This document shows, piece by piece, positions 5,155-55,478 of a stretch of DNA of 64,000 bases. The stretch is from Escherichia coli (GTDB lineage: Bacteria > Pseudomonadota > Gammaproteobacteria > Enterobacterales > Enterobacteriaceae). The stretch lies in NCBI RefSeq assembly GCF_051903065.1, contig NZ_CP178438.1, one strand, 5' to 3'. The translations under genes and the position numbers were made by a program. The notes beneath the pieces are model-generated. The model was not told the DNA's origin. It did not search any database and saw only the letters and a program-made list of their open reading frames with translations. Position 1 is the first letter of the stretch; every line of letters begins with the position of its first letter.

Positions 5155-5560
<406 letters not shown>

Positions 5561-26814: not shown

Positions 26815-26858
26815 CAGATGTGGTTATACTCGATCAACATTCAATGAAAGGAGGCAGT

Positions 26859-27287
26859 ATGGCAGTTTCAGCAAGAAATCAATTAACCGGAACAGTTAGC
26901 GCAGTAGCAATGGGCGCGGTGAATGACGAAGTAGAACTGACGCTGGCAGGTGGTGCAAAGCTGGTGGCAATTGTGACTCACAGCAGCCAGCAGGCTCTGG
27001 GTCTGGCGAAAGGGAAAGAAGCGATTGCCCTGATTAAAGCCCCGTGGGTAACGCTGGCAACGGAAGACTGTGGACTGAAATTCTCTGCTCGCAACCAGTT
27101 TGCTGGCAGCGTGTCGACAATCACCGAAGGCGCAGTGAACGCCACTGTCCATATCAAAACGGATGCGGGTTTTGAAATTGTGGCAGTGGTAACAAATGAA
27201 AGTCAGGATGAAATGAAACTCACCACTGGCTCACGCGTTATTGCATTGATCAAAGCATCAGCCATCCTGATTGCCACCAAAGCGTAA
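26859..27287 (+). CDS. Tandem Mop/TOBE-domain molybdate-binding protein (two ~70-aa repeats)
   Basis: ORF 26820..27287; start chosen at ATG 26859 after AGGAGG RBS (MAVSARNQLTGTV...); internal duplication SARNQLTGTVSAV / SARNQFAGSVSTI typical of Mop repeats; 45 nt downstream of fhlA stop. Confidence 0.75.
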   Translation: MAVSARNQLTGTVSAVAMGAVNDEVELTLAGGAKLVAIVTHSSQQALGLAKGKEAIALIKAPWVTLATEDCGLKFSARNQFAGSVSTITEGAVNATVHIKTDAGFEIVAVVTNESQDEMKLTTGSRVIALIKASAILIATKA

Positions 27288-27298
27288 ACGCCTTATTT

Positions 27299-27321
27299 GC
27301 CGGAGAGTATGGCTCTCCGGC
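27299..27321 (+). terminator. Stem-loop terminator after the Mop gene
   Basis: GCCGGAGAG-tatgg-CTCTCCGGC, perfect 9-bp stem followed by a T-rich tract on the + strand. Confidence 0.6.
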
Positions 27322-27325
27322 AGAT

Positions 27326-27670
27326 TTATTTCTTTGGACGATATTTTTCTGGCAACTCCGGCACCGGACGCTTGTCATCGATGAGATGACGCACGGTTAA
27401 GATCGGATGACGCCACAGCATTCTCGGCCCGGCCCAACGCATAATCTGTTTCATCTCTTCACGCTTTGCAGGCTGGTAACAGTGCACCGGACACTGCTTA
27501 CAGGCTGGTTTCTCTTCGCCGAACACACATTTATCCAGCCGCTTTTGCGCGTAAGCAAACAACGCCTCGTAATGCTCCGGCTCCGCTGACGCCTGCGGGC
27601 ATTTCGCTTGATAAAGATCGATCATTTTTTTAATCGTCAGTTTTTCACGAGAGATACGCTTGCCGGACAT
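27326..27670 (-). CDS. ygbA: Cys-rich protein YgbA (function unknown; nitrosative-stress regulon member)
   Basis: 114 aa with conserved cysteines (CPQ...CKQCPVHC); divergent from mutS; upstream inverted repeat TTAAGATGCATTT...ATCTTAA at 27686-27718 resembles an NsrR-type operator. Confidence 0.8.
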   Translation of the reverse strand: MSGKRISREKLTIKKMIDLYQAKCPQASAEPEHYEALFAYAQKRLDKCVFGEEKPACKQCPVHCYQPAKREEMKQIMRWAGPRMLWRHPILTVRHLIDDKRPVPELPEKYRPKK

Positions 27671-27956: not shown

Positions 27957-30518
27957 ATGAGTGCAATAGAAAATTTCGACGCCCATACGCCCATGATGCA
28001 GCAGTATCTCAAGCTGAAAGCCCAGCATCCCGAGATCCTGCTGTTTTACCGGATGGGTGATTTTTATGAACTGTTTTATGACGACGCAAAACGCGCGTCG
28101 CAACTGCTGGATATTTCACTGACCAAACGAGGTGCTTCAGCGGGAGAGCCGATCCCGATGGCGGGGATCCCCTACCATGCGGTGGAAAACTACCTCGCCA
28201 AACTGGTGAATCAGGGCGAGTCCGTTGCCATCTGCGAACAAATTGGCGATCCGGCGACCAGCAAAGGTCCGGTTGAGCGCAAAGTTGTGCGTATCGTTAC
28301 GCCAGGCACCATCAGCGATGAAGCCCTGTTGCAGGAGCGTCAGGACAACCTGCTGGCGGCTATCTGGCAGGACAGCAAAGGTTTCGGCTACGCGACGCTG
28401 GATATCAGTTCCGGGCGTTTTCGCCTGAGCGAACCGGCTGACCGGGAAACGATGGCGGCAGAACTGCAACGCACTAATCCTGCGGAACTGCTGTATGCAG
28501 AAGATTTTGCTGAAATGTCGTTAATTGAAGGCCGTCGCGGCCTGCGCCGTCGCCCGCTGTGGGAGTTTGAAATCGACACCGCGCGCCAGCAGTTGAATCT
28601 GCAATTTGGCACTCGCGATCTGGTCGGTTTTGGCGTCGAGAACGCGCCGCGCGGACTTTGTGCTGCCGGTTGTCTGTTGCAGTATGCGAAAGATACCCAA
28701 CGTACGACTCTGCCGCATATTCGTTCCATCACCATGGAACGTGAGCAGGACAGCATCATTATGGATGCCGCGACGCGTCGTAATCTGGAAATCACCCAGA
28801 ACCTGGCGGGTGGTGCGGAAAATACGCTGGCTTCTGTGCTCGACTGCACCGTCACGCCGATGGGCAGCCGTATGCTGAAACGCTGGCTGCATATGCCAGT
28901 GCGCGATACCCGCGTGTTGCTTGAGCGCCAGCAAACTATTGGCGCATTGCAGGATTTCACCGCCGGGCTACAGCCGGTACTGCGTCAGGTCGGCGACCTG
29001 GAACGTATTCTGGCACGTCTGGCTTTACGAACTGCTCGCCCACGCGATCTGGCCCGTATGCGCCACGCTTTCCAGCAACTGCCGGAGCTGCGTGCGCAGT
29101 TAGAAACTGTCGATAGTGCACCGGTACAGGCGCTACGTGAGAAGATGGGCGAGTTTGCCGAGCTGCGCGATCTGCTGGAGCGAGCAATCATCGACACACC
29201 GCCGGTGCTGGTACGCGACGGTGGTGTTATCGCATCGGGCTATAACGAAGAGCTGGATGAGTGGCGCGCGCTGGCTGACGGCGCGACCGATTATCTGGAG
29301 CGTCTGGAAGTCCGCGAGCGTGAACGTACCGGCCTGGACACGCTGAAAGTTGGCTTTAATGCGGTGCACGGCTACTACATTCAAATCAGCCGTGGGCAAA
29401 GCCATCTGGCACCCATCAACTACATGCGTCGCCAGACGCTGAAAAACGCCGAGCGCTACATCATTCCAGAGCTAAAAGAGTACGAAGATAAAGTTCTCAC
29501 CTCAAAAGGCAAAGCACTGGCACTGGAAAAACAGCTTTATGAAGAGTTGTTCGACCTGCTGTTGCCGCATCTGGAAGCGTTGCAACAGAGCGCGAGCGCG
29601 CTGGCGGAACTCGACGTGCTGGTGAACCTGGCGGAACGGGCCTATACCCTGAACTACACCTGCCCGACCTTTATTGATAAACCGGGCATTCGCATTACCG
29701 AAGGCCGCCATCCGGTGGTTGAACAGGTGCTGAACGAGCCATTTATCGCCAACCCGCTGAACCTGTCGCCACAGCGTCGCATGTTGATCATTACCGGTCC
29801 GAATATGGGCGGTAAAAGTACCTATATGCGCCAGACCGCACTGATTGCGCTGATGGCCTACATCGGCAGCTATGTACCGGCACAAAAAGTTGAGATTGGA
29901 CCTATCGATCGCATCTTTACCCGCGTAGGGGCAGCGGATGATCTGGCATCCGGGCGTTCAACCTTTATGGTGGAAATGACCGAAACCGCCAATATTTTAC
30001 ATAACGCCACCGAGTACAGTCTGGTACTGATGGATGAGATTGGGCGCGGAACTTCCACTTACGATGGTCTGTCGCTGGCGTGGGCGTGCGCGGAAAATCT
30101 GGCGAATAAGATTAAAGCATTGACGTTGTTTGCTACCCACTATTTCGAGCTGACCCAGTTACCGGAGAAAATGGAAGGCGTCGCCAACGTGCATCTCGAT
30201 GCACTGGAGCACGGCGACACCATTGCCTTTATGCATAGCGTGCAGAATGGCGCGGCGAGCAAAAGCTACGGCCTCGCGGTTGCAGCTCTGGCCGGCGTGC
30301 CAAAAGAGGTTATTAAGCGCGCACGGCAAAAACTGCGTGAGCTGGAAAGCATTTCGCCGAACGCCGCCGCTACGCAAGTGGATGGTACACAAATGTCTTT
30401 GCTGTCCGTACCGGAAGAAACCTCGCCTGCGGTCGAGGCACTGGAAAACCTCGATCCAGATTCACTCACCCCGCGTCAGGCGCTGGAATGGATTTATCGC
30501 CTGAAGAGTCTGGTGTAA
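27957..30518 (+). CDS. mutS: DNA mismatch repair protein MutS
   Basis: 853 aa; Walker [10 protein letters not shown]; full length and intact. Confidence 0.96.
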
Positions 30519-30623: not shown

Positions 30624-31280
30624 ATGCCATCTACACGCTATCAAAAAATCAATGCCCATCACTATCGCCATATATGGGTCGTTGGTGATATTCATGGTGA
30701 ATATCAGTTATTACAATCCCGCTTAAATCAACTCTCTTTTTTCCCCGAAACCGACTTACTTATTTCTGTCGGTGATAATATTGATCGTGGGCCGGAGAGT
30801 CTTAACGTCCTGCGCCTGCTAAACCAGCCCTGGTTTATCTCCGTTAAAGGCAACCACGAAGCAATGGCGCTGGATGCGTTCGCGACCGGCGATGGCAATA
30901 TGTGGCGTGCCAGCGGTGGTGACTGGTTTTTCGATTTAAATGATTCAGAGCAACAAGAGGCAATAGATCTGTTGCTGAAATTCCATCACCTTCCACATAT
31001 TATTGAAATCACTAACGACAACATAAAATATGTCATCGCACATGCAGATTATCCGGGGAGTGAATATCTCTTTGGTAAAGAAATAGCGGAGAGCGAATTA
31101 CTCTGGCCTGTTGATCGTGTGCAGAAATCACTTAATGGCGAGTTACAACAAATAAACGGCGCTGATTATTTTATATTTGGACATATGATGTTTGATAACA
31201 TTCAGACGTTCGCTAACCAGATTTATATTGATACCGGATCGCCGAAAAGCGGGCGGCTGTCATTTTATAAAATAAAGTAA
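30624..31280 (+). CDS. pphB: Serine/threonine protein phosphatase 2 (PP2B-like metallophosphatase)
   Basis: 218 aa; metallophosphatase motifs GDIHG, GDNIDRG, GNHE. Confidence 0.9.
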   Translation: MPSTRYQKINAHHYRHIWVVGDIHGEYQLLQSRLNQLSFFPETDLLISVGDNIDRGPESLNVLRLLNQPWFISVKGNHEAMALDAFATGDGNMWRASGGDWFFDLNDSEQQEAIDLLLKFHHLPHIIEITNDNIKYVIAHADYPGSEYLFGKEIAESELLWPVDRVQKSLNGELQQINGADYFIFGHMMFDNIQTFANQIYIDTGSPKSGRLSFYKIK

Positions 31281-31284
31281 TGAG

Positions 31285-31319
31285 GCCGGGTAAAGCAAAG
31301 CCACTACCCGGCACTTTTT
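31285..31319 (+). terminator. Rho-independent terminator after pphB
   Basis: GCCGGGTA-(12 nt loop)-TACCCGGC followed by ACTTTTTA. Confidence 0.6.
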
Positions 31320-31320
31320 A

Positions 31321-31557
31321 TTAGCGCTTACCTTCCGCCAGCAGCGGCGGGATGCTCGGCACCATTGGCGCGTCATCAATATCTTTCTGCGTCATGCGGA
31401 ACGCTTCGGGATAATGTTCGCGGCTGGTACGGCGCAGCGGTTCGGTATCGCGCCAGGTATAAAGGCAATGCTGGCACTGATATACCGTCCAGACATCTTT
31501 CACCGGCGATTTCGCCATCACTTCAATCTGTTCATCGGCACAACGTGGACAAATCAT
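31321..31557 (-). CDS. ecdD: Small zinc-ribbon subunit D of a UbiX/UbiD-type aromatic acid decarboxylase (BsdD/VdcD/KpdD family)
   Basis: 78 aa with CxxC...CxxC (MICPRCADEQ...CQHC); immediately downstream of the UbiD-like gene; symbol follows my recollection of E. coli O157 naming and needs confirmation. Confidence 0.7.
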   Translation of the reverse strand: MICPRCADEQIEVMAKSPVKDVWTVYQCQHCLYTWRDTEPLRRTSREHYPEAFRMTQKDIDDAPMVPSIPPLLAEGKR

Positions 31558-31567
31558 CTTGTTCTCC

Positions 31568-32995
31568 TTATTTACGTGCAGCCAGCATAGCGGTCAGTTT
31601 TTCAGCCCAGGCTTTGGTTTCCGGCAAATCCACCACCGGCTGGCTGTAGTGACCACGGTTGTCCGGGGCGACAGGCGTGGTGGCGTCGATAATCAGCTTG
31701 TCGGTGATCCCCGCCGGGCTTGAGCCAGGGTCGAGTTCCAGCACGGACATATTCGGCAACTGCACCAAATCCCCTGCCGGATTTACTTTCGAGGAGAGCG
31801 CCCACATCACCTGCGGCAGGTTGAACGGGTCAACGTCTTCATCGACCATAATCACCATCTTTACGTAGCCCAGACCGTGCGGCGTGGTCATCGCACGCAG
31901 GCCCACCGCGCGGGCAAAGCCGCCGTAGCGTTTTTTGGTGGAGATAATCGCCAGCAGGCCGTGGGTGTACATGGCGTTTACCGCCTGCACTTCCGGGAAC
32001 TCGGCTTTCAGTTGTTGATACAGCGGTACGCAGGTGGCTGGCCCCATCAGGTAGTCGATTTCGGTCCACGGCATGCCGAGGTACAGCGATTCGAAAATCG
32101 GCCTGGTGCGGTAAGAGACTTTATCGATGCGCACCACGGTCATGTTACGCCCGCCGGAGTAGTGTCCGGTAAACTCACCGAACGGCCCCTCGATTTCGCG
32201 TTTACGGCTTTCGATGACCCCTTCGAGGATCACTTCTGAACCCCACGGCACATCAAAACCGGTCAGCGGGGCGGTGGCGATCGGGTACGAGCTTTCACGC
32301 AGCGCGCCTGCCATTTCATACTCAGACTGATCGTATTTCAGCGGCGTGGCCCCCATCAGCGTGATGATCGGATCGTTACCGAGCGTGATGGCAATCGGCA
32401 GATCTTCACCGCGCTCTTCTGCTTTATGCAGATGCAGGGCGATATCGTGCATCGGCACCGGTTGCAGGCCGAGCTTACGCTTGCCCTTCACTTCCATGCG
32501 GTAGATGCCGACGTTCTGCTTGCCGAAGTTATCTGGGTCGAGCGGATCGCGGGAAACCACGCACGCTTTGTCGAGATAGAAACCGCCATCACCGTCGTTT
32601 AAACGAAACAGCGGCAGGATATCGAACAGATTAATCTCGTCACCATCGACGGTGTTCTGCGCCCAGGCTGGATTGGCGCGGCGCTCCGGGGCGATCGGGA
32701 AGTTATCCCAGCGGCGGATAAACTCATCAATCTGTTTTTTAACCGGGGTGTTTGGCGGCAGGCCCAAGGAAATCGCGTGGTTCTGCCAGGAACCGATGGT
32801 ATTCATCGCCACGCGGGCATCGGTAAAACCGCGAATATTATCAAACCACAGCGCCGGTGCACCATCGCCGATACGCCCGGTGGCGTTGGCAGCGGCAGCC
32901 AGATCCGGTTCCGCGTTCACCTCTTCGCTGATTTTCAGTAACTGGCCGTGGTCATCAAGCGCCTGTAAAAAGCTGCGTAAATCATCAAATGCCAT
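31568..32995 (-). CDS. ecdC: UbiD-family (prFMN-dependent) aromatic acid decarboxylase, subunit C
   Basis: 475 aa UbiD-like translation; operon order B-C-D on minus strand. Confidence 0.8.
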   Translation of the reverse strand: MAFDDLRSFLQALDDHGQLLKISEEVNAEPDLAAAANATGRIGDGAPALWFDNIRGFTDARVAMNTIGSWQNHAISLGLPPNTPVKKQIDEFIRRWDNFPIAPERRANPAWAQNTVDGDEINLFDILPLFRLNDGDGGFYLDKACVVSRDPLDPDNFGKQNVGIYRMEVKGKRKLGLQPVPMHDIALHLHKAEERGEDLPIAITLGNDPIITLMGATPLKYDQSEYEMAGALRESSYPIATAPLTGFDVPWGSEVILEGVIESRKREIEGPFGEFTGHYSGGRNMTVVRIDKVSYRTRPIFESLYLGMPWTEIDYLMGPATCVPLYQQLKAEFPEVQAVNAMYTHGLLAIISTKKRYGGFARAVGLRAMTTPHGLGYVKMVIMVDEDVDPFNLPQVMWALSSKVNPAGDLVQLPNMSVLELDPGSSPAGITDKLIIDATTPVAPDNRGHYSQPVVDLPETKAWAEKLTAMLAARK

Positions 32996-33588
32996 TATTC
33001 ATTCTCCTGAGAAAAATTCCGGGCCTGCGGCAATCCTTGCCAGCGCCTGGCGTGGGGATGTTCGAGGCCAAATTGATCCAGCACGCGGGCTACTACATGG
33101 TGGACAATGTCATCTACCGTTTCGGGATGGTTATAAAAGGCAGGCATCGGCGGCACCATCGCCACGCCCATGCGTGAAAGTGCGAGCATATTTTCGAGAT
33201 GGATGGTGCTAAGCGGCATTTCACGCGGCACCAGCACCAGTTTGCGGCCTTCTTTGAGCACGACGTCCGCCGCGCGCCCTACCAGGCCATCAGCGTAACC
33301 AGCGCGGATACCGGCGAGCGTTTTCATACTGCACGGAATAACGATCATGCCGTCGGTACGAAAGGAACCTGAGGAGATGGTCGCCGCCTGATCCGCCGGG
33401 TTATGGCTGAAGTCAGCGAGGGCAGCAACATCGCGGGCGCTGTAAGGCGTTTCCAGTTCAATGGTGGTTTTCGCCCACTTCGACATCACCAGATGAGTCT
33501 CGACATTCGGCATCTCCCGCAGCGCTTGCAGTAATGCCACACCAAGAGGCGCACCGGTAGCCCCTGTCATCCCGACGATCAGTTTCAT
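32995..33588 (-). CDS. ecdB: UbiX/Pad1-family flavin prenyltransferase, subunit B
   Basis: 197 aa; N-terminal MKLIVGMTGATGA flavoprotein motif typical of UbiX. Confidence 0.8.
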   Translation of the reverse strand: MKLIVGMTGATGAPLGVALLQALREMPNVETHLVMSKWAKTTIELETPYSARDVAALADFSHNPADQAATISSGSFRTDGMIVIPCSMKTLAGIRAGYADGLVGRAADVVLKEGRKLVLVPREMPLSTIHLENMLALSRMGVAMVPPMPAFYNHPETVDDIVHHVVARVLDQFGLEHPHARRWQGLPQARNFSQENE

Positions 33589-33605
33589 TGCTTATTCTCT
33601 TAATT

Positions 33606-33619
33606 GTTCGTATACGAAC
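33606..33619. promoter_or_regulatory. Perfect 14-bp palindrome, candidate MarR-type operator
   Basis: GTTCGTATACGAAC, 18 nt upstream of the ecdB start codon in the divergent intergenic region. Confidence 0.35.
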
Positions 33620-33734
33620 GTTATTATTAAAATACGCCTCTGTTCTCATCGCGGCAAGCACTGAAAAGTAACAACATCCCCTTCGTCACTGAAAAACCGC
33701 TATGATAGCGGCAGAGAATTAGCCCGGAGTTTAC

Positions 33735-34142
33735 ATGGCGTTACGAAATAAAGCGTTCCATCAGTTACGACAGCTTTTTCAGCAGCACACATCTCGCTGG
33801 CAGCATGAGCTACCTGGCCTGACCAAACCGCAGTACGCGGTGATGCGCGCCATTGCTGATAAGCCTGGTATCGAACAGGTTGCGCTGATGGAAGCAGCAG
33901 TCAGCACCAAAGCAACGCTGGCAGAAATGCTGGCAAGAATGGAGAATCGTGGCTTAGTCAGACGTGATCATGATGCCGCTGACAAGCGGCGTCGCTTTGT
34001 CTGGCTGACTGCCGAAGGAGAAAAGATACTTGCTGCGGCGATACCGATTGGTGACAGCGTGGATGAGGAATTTTTGGGGCGTTTGAGTGCAGAAGAGCAG
34101 GAGCTGTTTGTGCAGCTGGTGCGCAAGATGATGAACACATAG
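33735..34142 (+). CDS. MarR/SlyA-family winged-helix transcriptional regulator
   Basis: 135 aa; MarR-type wHTH (LTKPQYAVMRAI...GLVRR); divergent from the decarboxylase cassette. Confidence 0.8.
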   Translation: MALRNKAFHQLRQLFQQHTSRWQHELPGLTKPQYAVMRAIADKPGIEQVALMEAAVSTKATLAEMLARMENRGLVRRDHDAADKRRRFVWLTAEGEKILAAAIPIGDSVDEEFLGRLSAEEQELFVQLVRKMMNT

Positions 34143-34204
34143 GATGCAAATTGCCGGGTAGGACGCTGACGTGTCTTATCCAGGCGACAAAAACACAAGC
34201 TTCC

Positions 34205-34250
34205 CAAACAAAAGAAAAAGGCCAGCCTCGCTTGAGACTGGCCTTTCTGA
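34205..34250 (-). terminator. rpoS terminator (also serves the convergent MarR gene)
   Basis: GGCCAGCCTCGCTTGAGACTGGCC hairpin flanked by an A-run on + and a T-run on the minus strand. Confidence 0.65.
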
Positions 34251-34261
34251 CAGATGCTTAC

Positions 34262-35254
34262 TTACTCGCGGAACAGCGCTTCGATATTCAGCCCCTGCGT
34301 TTGCAGGATTTCGCGCAAACGGCGCAGGCCTTCAACCTGAATCTGGCGAACACGTTCACGGGTGAGGCCAATTTCACGACCTACATCTTCCAGTGTTGCC
34401 GCTTCGTACCCCAGCAAACCGAATCGACGTGCCAGTACTTCACGCTGTTTGGCGTTCAGCTCGAACAGCCATTTGACGATGCTCTGCTTCATATCGTCAT
34501 CTTGCGTGGTATCTTCCGGACCGTTCTCTTTTTCATCGGCCAGGATGTCCAGCAACGCTTTTTCGGAATCACCACCCAGCGGGGTGTCTACCGAGGTAAT
34601 GCGCTCGTTAAGACGAAGCATACGGCTGACGTCATCAACTGGCTTATCCAGTTGCTCTGCGATCTCTTCCGCACTTGGTTCATGGTCCAGCTTATGGGAC
34701 AACTCACGTGCGGTTCGCAGGTAAACGTTCAGCTCCTTTACGATGTGAATCGGCAAACGAATAGTACGGGTTTGGTTCATAATCGCCCGTTCAATCGTCT
34801 GGCGAATCCACCAGGTTGCGTATGTTGAGAAGCGGAAACCACGTTCCGGGTCAAACTTCTCTACCGCGCGGATCAGCCCCAGGTTGCCCTCTTCGATAAG
34901 GTCCAGCAACGCCAGACCACGATTGCCATAACGGCGGGCAATTTTTACCACCAGACGCAAGTTACTCTCGATCATCCGGCGGCGAGAGGCGACATCTCCA
35001 CGCAGTGCGCGACGCGCAAAATAAACTTCTTCTTCGGCCGTTAACAGTGGTGAATAACCAATCTCACCAAGGTAAAGCTGAGTCGCGTCCAACACACGCT
35101 GTGTGGCTCCCTGCGATAACAGTTCCTCTTCGGCCAAATCGTTATCACTGGGTTCCTCTTCTACTAAGGCCTTTTCGTCAAAAACCTCAACTCCGTTCTC
35201 ATCAAATTCCGCATCTTCATTTAAATCATGAACTTTCAGCGTATTCTGACTCAT
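34262..35254 (-). CDS. rpoS: Stationary-phase sigma factor RpoS (sigma-38)
   Basis: ORF 34262..35290; start at [21 protein letters not shown] (330 aa); intact with no premature stop; codon 33 is GAG. Confidence 0.96.
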
Positions 35255-45341: not shown

Positions 45342-45858
45342 GGGTGTTCTACCGCAGGGGCGGGGAATTCTCAGTGATATCCATCATCGCATCCAGTGCG
45401 CCCGGTTTATCCCCGCTGGCGCGGGGAACACGTGTGGCACTCTGCGTCTGGTATTAAATCATTCGGTTTATCCCCGCTGGCGCGGGGAACACCCGCCACG
45501 CCGTGCGCATCAACAGATATACGCAGGTTTATCCCCGCTGGCGCGGGGAACACAAACCGAAACACACGATCAATCCGAATATGAGCGGTTTATCCCCGCT
45601 GGCGCGGGGAACACCGAAAAGGCACCGTGCCGGTGACGTTCAATTCCGGTTTATCCCCGCTGGCGCGGGGAACACCGTTTTCACTCACTGGCAATCTCCG
45701 AGCAGAGCGGTTTATCCCCGCTGGCGCGGGGAACACGTGCGAATACCGTGTAAAAAATTAGTGTTATTCGGTTTATCCCCGCTGGCGCGGGGAACACTCA
45801 CGGTAGCGCCACTGCGCGTCGGTGACGGGCGGTTTATCCCCGCTGGCGCGGGGAACAC
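45342..45858 (-). CRISPR. Type I-E CRISPR array: 8 canonical 29-bp repeats plus one degenerate terminal repeat, 8 spacers
   Basis: Repeat on + strand CGGTTTATCCCCGCTGGCGCGGGGAACAC at 45403, 45464, 45525 (first base A), 45586, 45647, 45708, 45769, 45830; 61-bp period; degenerate iap-proximal repeat 45342-45370 matches 19/29; spacers 32 bp; leader at the high-coordinate end, so crRNA is read from the minus strand. Confidence 0.97.
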
Positions 45859-51719: not shown

Positions 51720-52115
51720 ACGCATCCTCTCGTAGAAAAGACCATCCCTGGTCGGTTGTCCATCACCATATTTTCAGATTTAGTTGGAGACTTAATCTGA
51801 GTCGGATAAAAGAAAAGACGTTGAATGTGATACGAAAATCGAACTTAGTTTGTCGTTTTGAAAGCAGACTTAGCACAAGTTGAAGCAAAAAAATCGACAA
51901 CATCGTAGTCCTCTTCACCGCAGCTTTTCACCGGTCACGAAAATACGCCTTGTAACGGTGTGACTCAACTCCGGATCCGGACATTATTTAAAATCTTTGT
52001 TTCTCATTAACTCATAGCAATTACCCATCTATCATAATCACAATAGCATTGATAAAATAAATCCATTCCCTGATTCTAGGGATTAACCAAGTTAGTGAGA
52101 TACAAAAATTGGTTC

Positions 52116-52144
52116 CTGTTCCCCGCGTCAGCGGGGATAAGCCC
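52116..52144 (+). repeat. Solitary CRISPR-repeat-like element in the cas3-cse1 intergenic region
   Basis: + strand CTGTTCCCCGCGTCAGCGGGGATAAGCCC matches the crRNA-sense repeat GTGTTCCCCGCGCCAGCGGGGATAAACCG at 25/29 with the stem intact; orientation is opposite to the array; followed by a perfect 10-bp hairpin at 52142-52165 that abuts the cas3 stop. Confidence 0.8.
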
Positions 52145-52169
52145 TGGCGTCATCCGACGCCAGGGCATC

Positions 52170-54869: not shown

Positions 54870-55061
54870 ATTTTAAAAATTATCTGTGATATATATCAGC
54901 CAATAAAACATTTATATTGTGAATAAATTTATGATTTTCATTTGAAATTCATAATAATAAATAGAGACAATATATTCACATAAAAAATATAAATTTAAAA
55001 AAGGGTGCAGGAGACCAAACCATCACAATTCAATACGCGGGGTTTTACCCCCGCGTGGTGG

Positions 55062-55214
55062 CTACTTCTTCGATTCGTAAGCGAGAACAGCCTTAAACTC
55101 CATACCACGTTCTCTGATACTCAACTCACACAACGAGTCACCTACCATCAGCGTGAATCCCAGTACTGTACAACACAGTACGATGATTGCCACAAGGGCA
55201 TATTTTGTCAGCAT
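55062..55214 (-). CDS. Hok/Gef-family type I toxin (50 aa), HokE-like
   Basis: Not in ORF track (too short). ATG 55214 after GGGAGG; translation [50 protein letters not shown] with the Hok signature SLCE..R.G.E..A.LAYES.K; stem-loop GCGGGGGTAAAACCCCGC just downstream (55036-55055). Confidence 0.7.
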
Positions 55215-55478
55215 GTCTTGCCTCCCTGCAAAGAAGAGACTAACATTCGAATTGCTTAGGTTCGAACGCTGGCCTCAGGTTGATAGAAATATCGCCTGGG
55301 GCTTTTGTCCATCTGGAACCTCGCGAATGCTTAACGCCAGACAGCCTCAAGCACCCAACACCATTCTATACCTGTTAATTCTTCCAGCGGCGTTCACGTT
55401 TAAAATCAGGAATGCTGCTCGCAAAATAAAAACGCCCCCATCATTTCTGACAGAGGCGTTTAATTTATCCGGCAATAT

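Follow-up and report, generated by a model that had tools for sequence, protein, structure and literature searches.

Three-subunit decarboxylases of the VdcBCD/ShdBCD/BsdBCD kind, known from Sedimentibacter hydroxybenzoicus, Bacillus subtilis and Streptomyces sp. D7, share a common logic: a UbiX-type subunit (B) makes the cofactor, a UbiD-type subunit (C) is the catalyst, and a zinc-ribbon subunit (D) is the activator. VdcC is inactive without VdcD, the two proteins form a tight complex, and the B-type protein supplies the prenylated flavin mononucleotide (prFMN) (PMC8379154). For the enterobacterial EcdCD of Escherichia coli O157:H7, studied as a recombinant enzyme, the table of a review (PMC6644310, citing Lupa et al. 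2005) gives 4-hydroxybenzoate as the best substrate and vanillate as the second. The present analysis concerns the corresponding locus in a 64,000-nucleotide stretch of E. coli DNA (contig NZ_CP178438.1; hereafter, the window), in which the decarboxylase genes ecdB, ecdC and ecdD and the divergent MarR-family gene hosA lie between pphB and rpoS.

HosA is the repressor of this system, and 4-hydroxybenzoate biosensors already employ it. Gel shift, biolayer interferometry and calorimetry have established that HosA binds a 14-bp site, from which it is freed by 4-hydroxybenzoate, with a dissociation constant for the ligand of 4.74 uM (PMC6261655). In strain UMN026, HosA represses both itself and the decarboxylase operon, which 4-hydroxybenzoate induces (Roy and Ranjan, as summarised in bioRxiv 10.1101/2024.04.24.590444); the same summary places the HosA site downstream of the transcription start.

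The locus in the window is, with a probability of about 0.93, this characterised ecdBCD operon (also known as the pad1-yclC-yclD, kpdBCD or vdcBCD type) together with its hosA repressor, and thus an inducible 4-hydroxybenzoate/vanillate decarboxylase system. The identity, intactness and packing of the genes, the operator and its conservation, and the layout and distribution of the locus are obtained here. The genes, two protein structures, the substrates, the HosA ligand, the operator and the strain polymorphism are already published. The additions made here are the exact junctions, a count of carriers in 5,426 complete E. coli genomes, the synteny across genera, a proximal operator that is universal and a distal one that may have been lost, and the strong conservation of C.

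Organization of the ecdBCD-hosA Locus

All four genes of the cassette (hosA, B, C, and D) are intact and full length (Table 1). The three decarboxylase genes are encoded on the minus strand, with a 1-base overlap between B and C at 32995 and a gap of 10 nt between C and D, a spacing that marks them as one packed operon and from which a single B-C-D transcript is predicted. The hosA gene diverges from ecdB across an intergenic region of 146 bp. An earlier note, made from the letters of the DNA, had placed here a UbiX-like, UbiD-like and zinc-ribbon decarboxylase operon with a divergent MarR-family regulator; its span of 31321-34142 is exact, running from the stop codon of D to that of the MarR-family gene, and both identities are borne out by the family models and structural matches described below. 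The convergent spacer between pphB and D holds a hairpin resembling repetitive extragenic palindromic (REP) elements, which is probably a two-way terminator serving both genes. An Rfam scan found no known RNA family in the cassette or near it.

Table 1. Coordinates and supporting evidence for the genes and sequence elements of the mutS-rpoS segment of the window. ORF, open reading frame.
Feature	Position	Strand	Length	Description and evidence
mutS	27957-30518	+	853 aa	ORF list
pphB	30624-31280	+	218 aa	ORF list
REP-like hairpin	31285-31312	.		pphB/D convergent spacer; folds at -19.6 (+) and -18.4 (-) kcal/mol; z -2.6 and -2.0
ecdD (vdcD/kpdD type)	31321-31557	-	78 aa	ORF list; zinc-ribbon activator subunit; NCBIfam NF041205 VdcD, 121.2 bits (cut-off 30)
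ecdC (yclC/kpdC/vdcC type)	31568-32995	-	475 aa	ORF list; UbiD-family catalytic subunit, prFMN-dependent; NCBIfam NF041204 VdcC, 787.8 bits (cut-off 650)
ecdB (pad1/kpdB/vdcB type)	32995-33588	-	197 aa	ORF list; UbiX-family flavin prenyltransferase making prFMN; NCBIfam NF041206 VdcB, 312.2 bits (cut-off 290)
HosA operator O1	33606-33619	.		Perfect palindrome GTTCGTATACGAAC; 17 nt upstream of the ecdB start codon; single occurrence in the window
Predicted ecdB promoter	33629-33657	-		Putative -35 TTGCCG (33657-33652) and -10 TATTTT (33634-33629), 17-nt spacer; read from the sequence
Second palindrome	33697-33711	.		CCGCTATGATAGCGG; 23 nt upstream of the hosA start codon; folds at -7.7 kcal/mol, z -3.1
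hosA	33735-34142	+	135 aa	ORF list; MarR/SlyA-family repressor, probably responding to 4-hydroxybenzoate by analogy; matches the solved HosA of E2348/69
REP-like element	34152-34188	.		Between hosA and the rpoS terminator; putative, from its resemblance to the REP units of the array at 5155-5542
rpoS intrinsic terminator	34215-34248	-		Terminator scan and junction alignment; K-12 homology restarts here
rpoS	34262-35254	-	330 aa	ORF list

The Decarboxylase Subunits

Subunit identities rest on curated NCBIfam models with their curated cut-offs, and each of the three proteins passes that of its Vdc-type model. The ecdC product also passes the broader UbiD family model TIGR00148 (418.5 bits, cut-off 244.85), and the ecdB product the broader UbiX family model TIGR00421 (246 bits, cut-off 108.9). 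Against the BagM/FevK model, ecdB scores 342.3 bits, above its VdcB score yet under that model's own cut-off of 420. The ecdB protein is identical in 196 of its 197 residues to PDB 1SBZ, an entry that bears the label “Probable aromatic acid decarboxylase” and is presumably the dodecameric Pad1 of E. coli O157:H7.

The catalytic subunit is 54% identical to ShVdcC of S. hydroxybenzoicus (PDB 7AE4), its best match among solved proteins, over 465 aligned residues (E = 8e-160). Its residues R166, within GIYRM, and E269 and E274, within EGPFGEF, align with identical motifs of ShVdcC. They occupy the places of the Glu-Arg-Glu catalytic residues of the UbiD family. The “ERE” of UbiD enzymes is mentioned in PMC8379154.

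The ecdD product matches ShdD of PDB 7AE4 (E = 3e-11) and keeps its cysteine site; Cys3, Cys6, Cys28, and Cys31 carry the same numbering as the zinc ligands C3/C6/C28/C31 of ShVdcD (PMC8379154). The C-terminal proline-rich IPPL motif is retained as well. Unlike ShdD, the protein has a 6-residue insertion. The system as a whole differs from VdcBCD/ShdBCD/BsdBCD in being enterobacterial, in having a HosA-type MarR repressor, and in occupying a fixed chromosomal site beside rpoS.

The HosA Regulator and Its Operator

The hosA product is identical over its full length, in 129 of 135 residues (E = 4e-82), to the crystallised HosA of enteropathogenic E. coli (EPEC) strain E2348/69 (PDB 8AGA and 8PQ4, among other entries), which has a winged-helix MarR fold. 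Because it scores under the equivalog cut-offs for SlyA, MarR and HpaR, the protein is none of these three. Alignment shows that Asp110 is present, the residue that contacts the ligand in HosA according to a passage of bioRxiv 10.1101/2024.04.24.590444.

The operator is the 14-bp palindrome GTTCGTATACGAAC that the earlier note had pointed out, and it is indeed perfect and single. It was located by a direct pattern search; an inverted-repeat finder gave only an overlapping imperfect repeat. The site is identical to the operator of the published HosA study (PMC6261655), of which one supplementary oligonucleotide contains the exact 14-mer, while the flanks in the supplementary oligonucleotides, CAGAGGCGTATTTTAATAATAAC ... 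AATTAAGAGAATAA, are the reverse complement of the window around 33606-33619. A full-text literature search with the letters of the operator returned no match, although the sequence is present in that supplement.

The operator extends well beyond this strain. The pattern GTTCG-N4-CGAAC, with at most one mismatch, is found start-proximal in 76/76 related intergenic regions, mostly 15-21 nt before the start codon of the first structural gene. A second palindrome resembling a HosA box lies about 55-70 bp further upstream in 38 of the 76, those without it including Escherichia, Citrobacter and Salmonella; the matching place in the window is about 33660-33690. These three genera may have lost the distal box, and such a loss could alter the autoregulation of hosA.

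A consensus promoter scan called no promoter in the hosA-ecdB intergenic region. The ecdB promoter predicted in Table 1 matches 8 of 12 positions and is proposed because an alignment shows TTG and TA..TT, spaced 17 nt apart between the two box positions, to be conserved across genera. With this promoter, the operator would lie at about +3 to +17 of the ecdB transcript, downstream of its start, which agrees with the published roadblock model. The second palindrome has a core, CTAT(G/C)ATAG, that is conserved across the Enterobacteriaceae, and a candidate hosA -10 element, TATGAT, would lie inside it at 33701-33706.

In EPEC, HosA reportedly influences motility and the expression of flagellin (Ferrandiz 2005, cited by bioRxiv 10.1101/2024.04.24.590444 and PMC5491219), an effect expected if the protein were chiefly a global regulator of motility and virulence whose gene merely neighbours the decarboxylase genes. 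Type III secretion and attaching-effacing lesions are nevertheless unaffected by HosA, according to a passage of PMC5491219. Furthermore, the divergent pairing of hosA with the decarboxylase genes is kept along with the operator in all 76 related loci, including those of genera in which the module sits away from rpoS, a pattern that marks a dedicated local regulator. A chiefly global role is thus unlikely, and HosA is best regarded as the local repressor of ecdBCD.

Proposed Mechanism and Substrates

In the mechanism proposed for this locus, B would make prFMN out of reduced flavin mononucleotide and dimethylallyl phosphate. With prFMN, C would convert 4-hydroxybenzoate to phenol and CO2, and vanillate to guaiacol and CO2, in reversible and non-oxidative reactions. 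D, a four-cysteine zinc ribbon, would bind C tightly and be required for its activity. A HosA dimer on GTTCGTATACGAAC, just downstream of the operon start, would block RNA polymerase until the binding of 4-hydroxybenzoate freed it from the DNA and the operon was derepressed.

Substrates of UbiD-family enzymes are hard to assign by sequence alone, and the true substrate could conceivably be a different phenolic acid, such as the protocatechuate or gallate of AroY and LpdC, or the genes could be a spare UbiX/UbiD pair for ubiquinone synthesis. The substrate table of PMC6644310 lists a wider range for the related KpdBCD of Klebsiella, and B-type proteins can feed prFMN to other UbiD enzymes, as does the EcdB of Enterobacter, which raises AroY activity (PMC5779730). 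However, ecdC reaches only 174.6 bits against the ubiquinone-synthesis UbiD model, far under its equivalog cut-off of 788, and was rejected as a member of that group. It was likewise rejected as an AroY-type enzyme, since the solved protocatechuate decarboxylases match it with E values of only 1e-24 to 1e-26 compared to 8e-160 for VdcC. The presence of a D subunit is a hallmark of the Vdc type, the ligand of the regulator is 4-hydroxybenzoate (PMC6261655), and the enzyme of O157:H7 is tabulated with 4-hydroxybenzoate and vanillate (PMC6644310). A different substrate or a ubiquinone role is therefore highly improbable. The remark in the earlier note that the substrate is not firmly established is out of date in light of the latter table, and the enzyme and HosA gel-shift assays that it suggested are largely published already.

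Several points weigh against the assignment of the locus as an inducible 4-hydroxybenzoate/vanillate decarboxylase. Activity and regulation are carried over by analogy from orthologues that are 95-100% identical, namely, the O157:H7 enzyme and the HosA proteins of UMN026 and E2348/69. HosA of the window differs from the crystallised protein by the substitutions S20A, G28D, M52I, D78E, I98V, and V126M. In addition, several oligonucleotides in the supplement of PMC6261655 print a 15-nt operator, GTTTCGTATACGAAC, with an extra T (GTTTCG...); this is taken as a misprint or a design variant because the main text of that study gives 14 bp. Candidate roles for the operon in the gut are detoxification, phenol formation and carboxylation.

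The mutS-rpoS Interval in E. coli

The earlier note described the mutS-rpoS interval as polymorphic, with ygbI-ygbN at this position in K-12, and likened the arrangement of the window to that of O157:H7-type strains; the literature and a synteny comparison agree on all three counts. Four patterns of this region (o454-nlpD) have been defined: pattern I, the type of O157:H7 and enterohaemorrhagic E. coli (EHEC) 1, without o454 (ygbN); pattern II, the K-12 type; pattern III, the B2/CFT073 type; and pattern IV, the EPEC type, with ygbN as well as kpdD, kpdC, kpdB, and slyA (PMC4209514). The O157:H7-type segment is named “2.9-kb” (PMC4209514, PMC5491219). The window is of pattern I: between pphB and rpoS it has no ygbN block, and kpdD/C/B and slyA (hosA) lie there on a segment of about 2.9 kb.

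Patterns II and IV share the flanks of the window, with mutS and pphB on one side and rpoS and nlpD on the other, and differ in what lies between. K-12 MG1655 has ygbI-ltnD-otnK-ygbL-ygbM-ygbN and lacks the cassette, which is the opposite of the window. Strain 98227, of pattern IV, has both, in the order pphB-ygbI...ygbN-D-C-B-hosA-rpoS. Pattern IV cassettes are about 96% identical in DNA to that of the window, and in this pattern a 6,077-bp ygbI-ygbN block ending in a different hairpin separates pphB from D in place of the 29-bp spacer of the window. The order mutS-pphB-D-C-B-hosA-rpoS is found in O157:H7 strain 2159, which has the same RefSeq accession for its D protein. The cassette DNA of O157:H7 is 98.3% identical to that of the window, and the differences are only allelic.

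The junctions can be placed to the base. In a BLAST comparison with the K-12 locus, homology is lost at 31279 and regained at 34216, in the rpoS terminator, such that a window-specific segment of 2,936 bp (31280-34215) replaces the 6,097-bp ygbI-ygbN block of K-12. Homology to K-12 and pattern IV stops at the third base of the pphB stop codon, which is TAA in the window and TAG in the others. There follows in the window the 29-bp spacer with the REP-like hairpin and then the stop codon of D. At the other end, the K-12 junction consists of the ygbN terminator, the 8 bp GTGCACAG, and the rpoS terminator.

Among the 5,426 complete genomes, 2,417 (44%) have a match to the cassette and 2,380 cover at least 80% of it, leaving, by subtraction, about 3,000 without it. 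The cassette is chromosomal in every carrier. It is joined directly to pphB, as in pattern I, in 801 genomes, and is separated from pphB, as in pattern IV, in about 1,580 (also by subtraction). A cassette at least 99% identical to that of the window is found in only four of the genomes, and the window therefore represents a rarer lineage. The closest strain, ECNB21-M121, has about 11 mismatches to the window and a copy of IS421 that the window lacks.

The Cassette beyond E. coli

When species-representative genomes were scanned with protein C, 80 loci were obtained at 88-99% identity, and their neighbouring genes were located by tblastn. The order rpoS-hosA-B-C-D-(pphB)-mutS recurs in about 45 species from other genera of the Enterobacteriaceae, including Citrobacter, Pseudocitrobacter, Enterobacter, Klebsiella, Kluyvera, Leclercia, Lelliottia, Atlantibacter, Kosakonia, Franconibacter, and Mangrovibacter, among others. 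Escherichia sp. E1V33, one Klebsiella and two Pseudocitrobacter genomes have pphB in the interval from D to mutS. The hairpin of the D-pphB spacer is also present in E1V33 and Pseudocitrobacter, which points to an old origin of the pattern I junction. Salmonella enterica subsp. arizonae and Phytobacter carry an inverted cassette in the mutS-rpoS interval, and the same inverted hosA-BCD-rpoS order is found in diarizonae, with mutS outside the stretch examined. Intact hosA-BCD modules away from rpoS are present in Rahnella, Pantoea, Erwinia, Vibrio salinus, and Shewanella mangrovi.

In 11 species, hosA directly adjoins C and no B gene was detected. These B-less cassettes belong to Superficieibacter, Pluralibacter, Cedecea, Chimaeribacter, Mangrovibacter phragmitis, Siccibacter, Rouxiella, two Rahnella and Erwinia endophytica, and would presumably obtain their prFMN through the housekeeping UbiX.

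Between the window and the species of other genera whose locus also includes rpoS (42-50 per protein), median identities are 99.1% for RpoS, 96.4% for C, 93.2% for MutS, 91.0% for D, 88.3% for B, 79.3% for NlpD, and 73.0% for HosA. The C protein is still 88-89% identical in V. salinus and S. mangrovi. Conservation of C above that of MutS reflects either unusually strong constraint or transfer between orders. Strong constraint would suggest a core physiological role in enterobacteria, e.g., the formation of phenol from 4-hydroxybenzoate in the gut.

The cassette could also be viewed as a pathogen-specific islet of horizontal origin; such an acquisition is claimed in the title and Fig. 1 of one preprint (bioRxiv 10.1101/2024.04.24.590444), which argues for Shigella as the source. 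The interval is polymorphic among E. coli strains, the G+C content of the cassette (55-58%) departs from that of the adjoining pphB (43-46%), and the high identity of C in a Vibrio and a Shewanella could mean transfer at a deeper level. On the other hand, the G+C content of the nearby mutS and rpoS (52-59%) is similar to that of the cassette, and the 44% of complete E. coli genomes that carry it include isolates from water, food and animals. Identity of 97.6% to a Shigella protein is uninformative as to the direction of transfer because Shigella is nested within E. coli. A mobile islet is argued against by the gene order common to Citrobacter, Klebsiella, Enterobacter and further genera, by the spacer hairpin shared with Pseudocitrobacter, and by the absence of mobility genes or repeat boundaries flanking the cassette. 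Horizontal acquisition as a pathogen-specific islet is accordingly very unlikely.

The synteny across genera and the old junction instead support vertical inheritance with lineage-specific loss, by which the rpoS-side cassette looks ancestral in the Enterobacteriaceae and K-12 looks like a derived, deleted state. Herbelin 2000, by its title (“Gene conservation and loss...”), already implies vertical inheritance with loss. A joint reading, in which the O157-type layout is approximately ancestral, K-12 gained ygbI-ygbN and then lost the cassette, C has a core role, and the distal box was lost, is put forward tentatively, its chances falling somewhat short of even.

Other Features of the Window

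A gene for a TOBE-domain protein of the molybdopterin-binding type (26859-27287, plus strand) lies between fhlA and ygbA, in a segment (26816-27328) in place of which K-12 has 47 bp. It corresponds to the c3292 polymorphism and is scored absent in EDL933 in Table 1 of PMC4209514; because the window carries this gene, it is not simply an O157-type mosaic. The 5155-5542 array, between hypF and norW, consists of four tandem 97-bp units that are 90% alike. As each contains a REP-type palindrome, the array looks like a bacterial interspersed mosaic element.

A type I-E array of clustered regularly interspaced short palindromic repeats (CRISPR) at 45405-45856, beside cas2 and iap, has eight identical repeats and seven spacers, with a period of 61 bp. 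A single isolated type I-E repeat, GCTTATCCCCGCTGACGCGGGGAAC, slightly degenerate, is located at 52118-52142 (minus strand) in the cas3-casA intergenic region (51720-52169), directly preceded by a hairpin downstream of the cas3 stop codon. The 450-bp allele of this intergenic region is rare, being covered to at least 80% in only 6 of the 5,426 complete genomes, while the surrounding cas genes are of a common allele (2,408 genomes at the same coverage). The cas3-casA spacer of K-12 presumably contains the promoter of the cas operon, and its replacement could therefore change cas expression.

A hok/sok toxin-antitoxin locus at 55062-55356 comprises a Hok/Gef gene and an Rfam match to sok (55199-55356, minus strand, 111.7 bits). 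Beside hok/sok, ECNB21-M121 has its IS421 copy of about 1.3 kb, which is absent from the window; the two alignment blocks overlap by 12 bp at 55040-55051 of the window.

Significance

This locus is a useful typing marker for the mutS-rpoS region. The ancestral reading, if true, counters the “pathogen-specific, horizontally acquired” framing of recent papers. K-12 is not the default state of this interval: the operon lies beside rpoS in close to half of the complete E. coli genomes and in most of the Enterobacteriaceae genera sampled.

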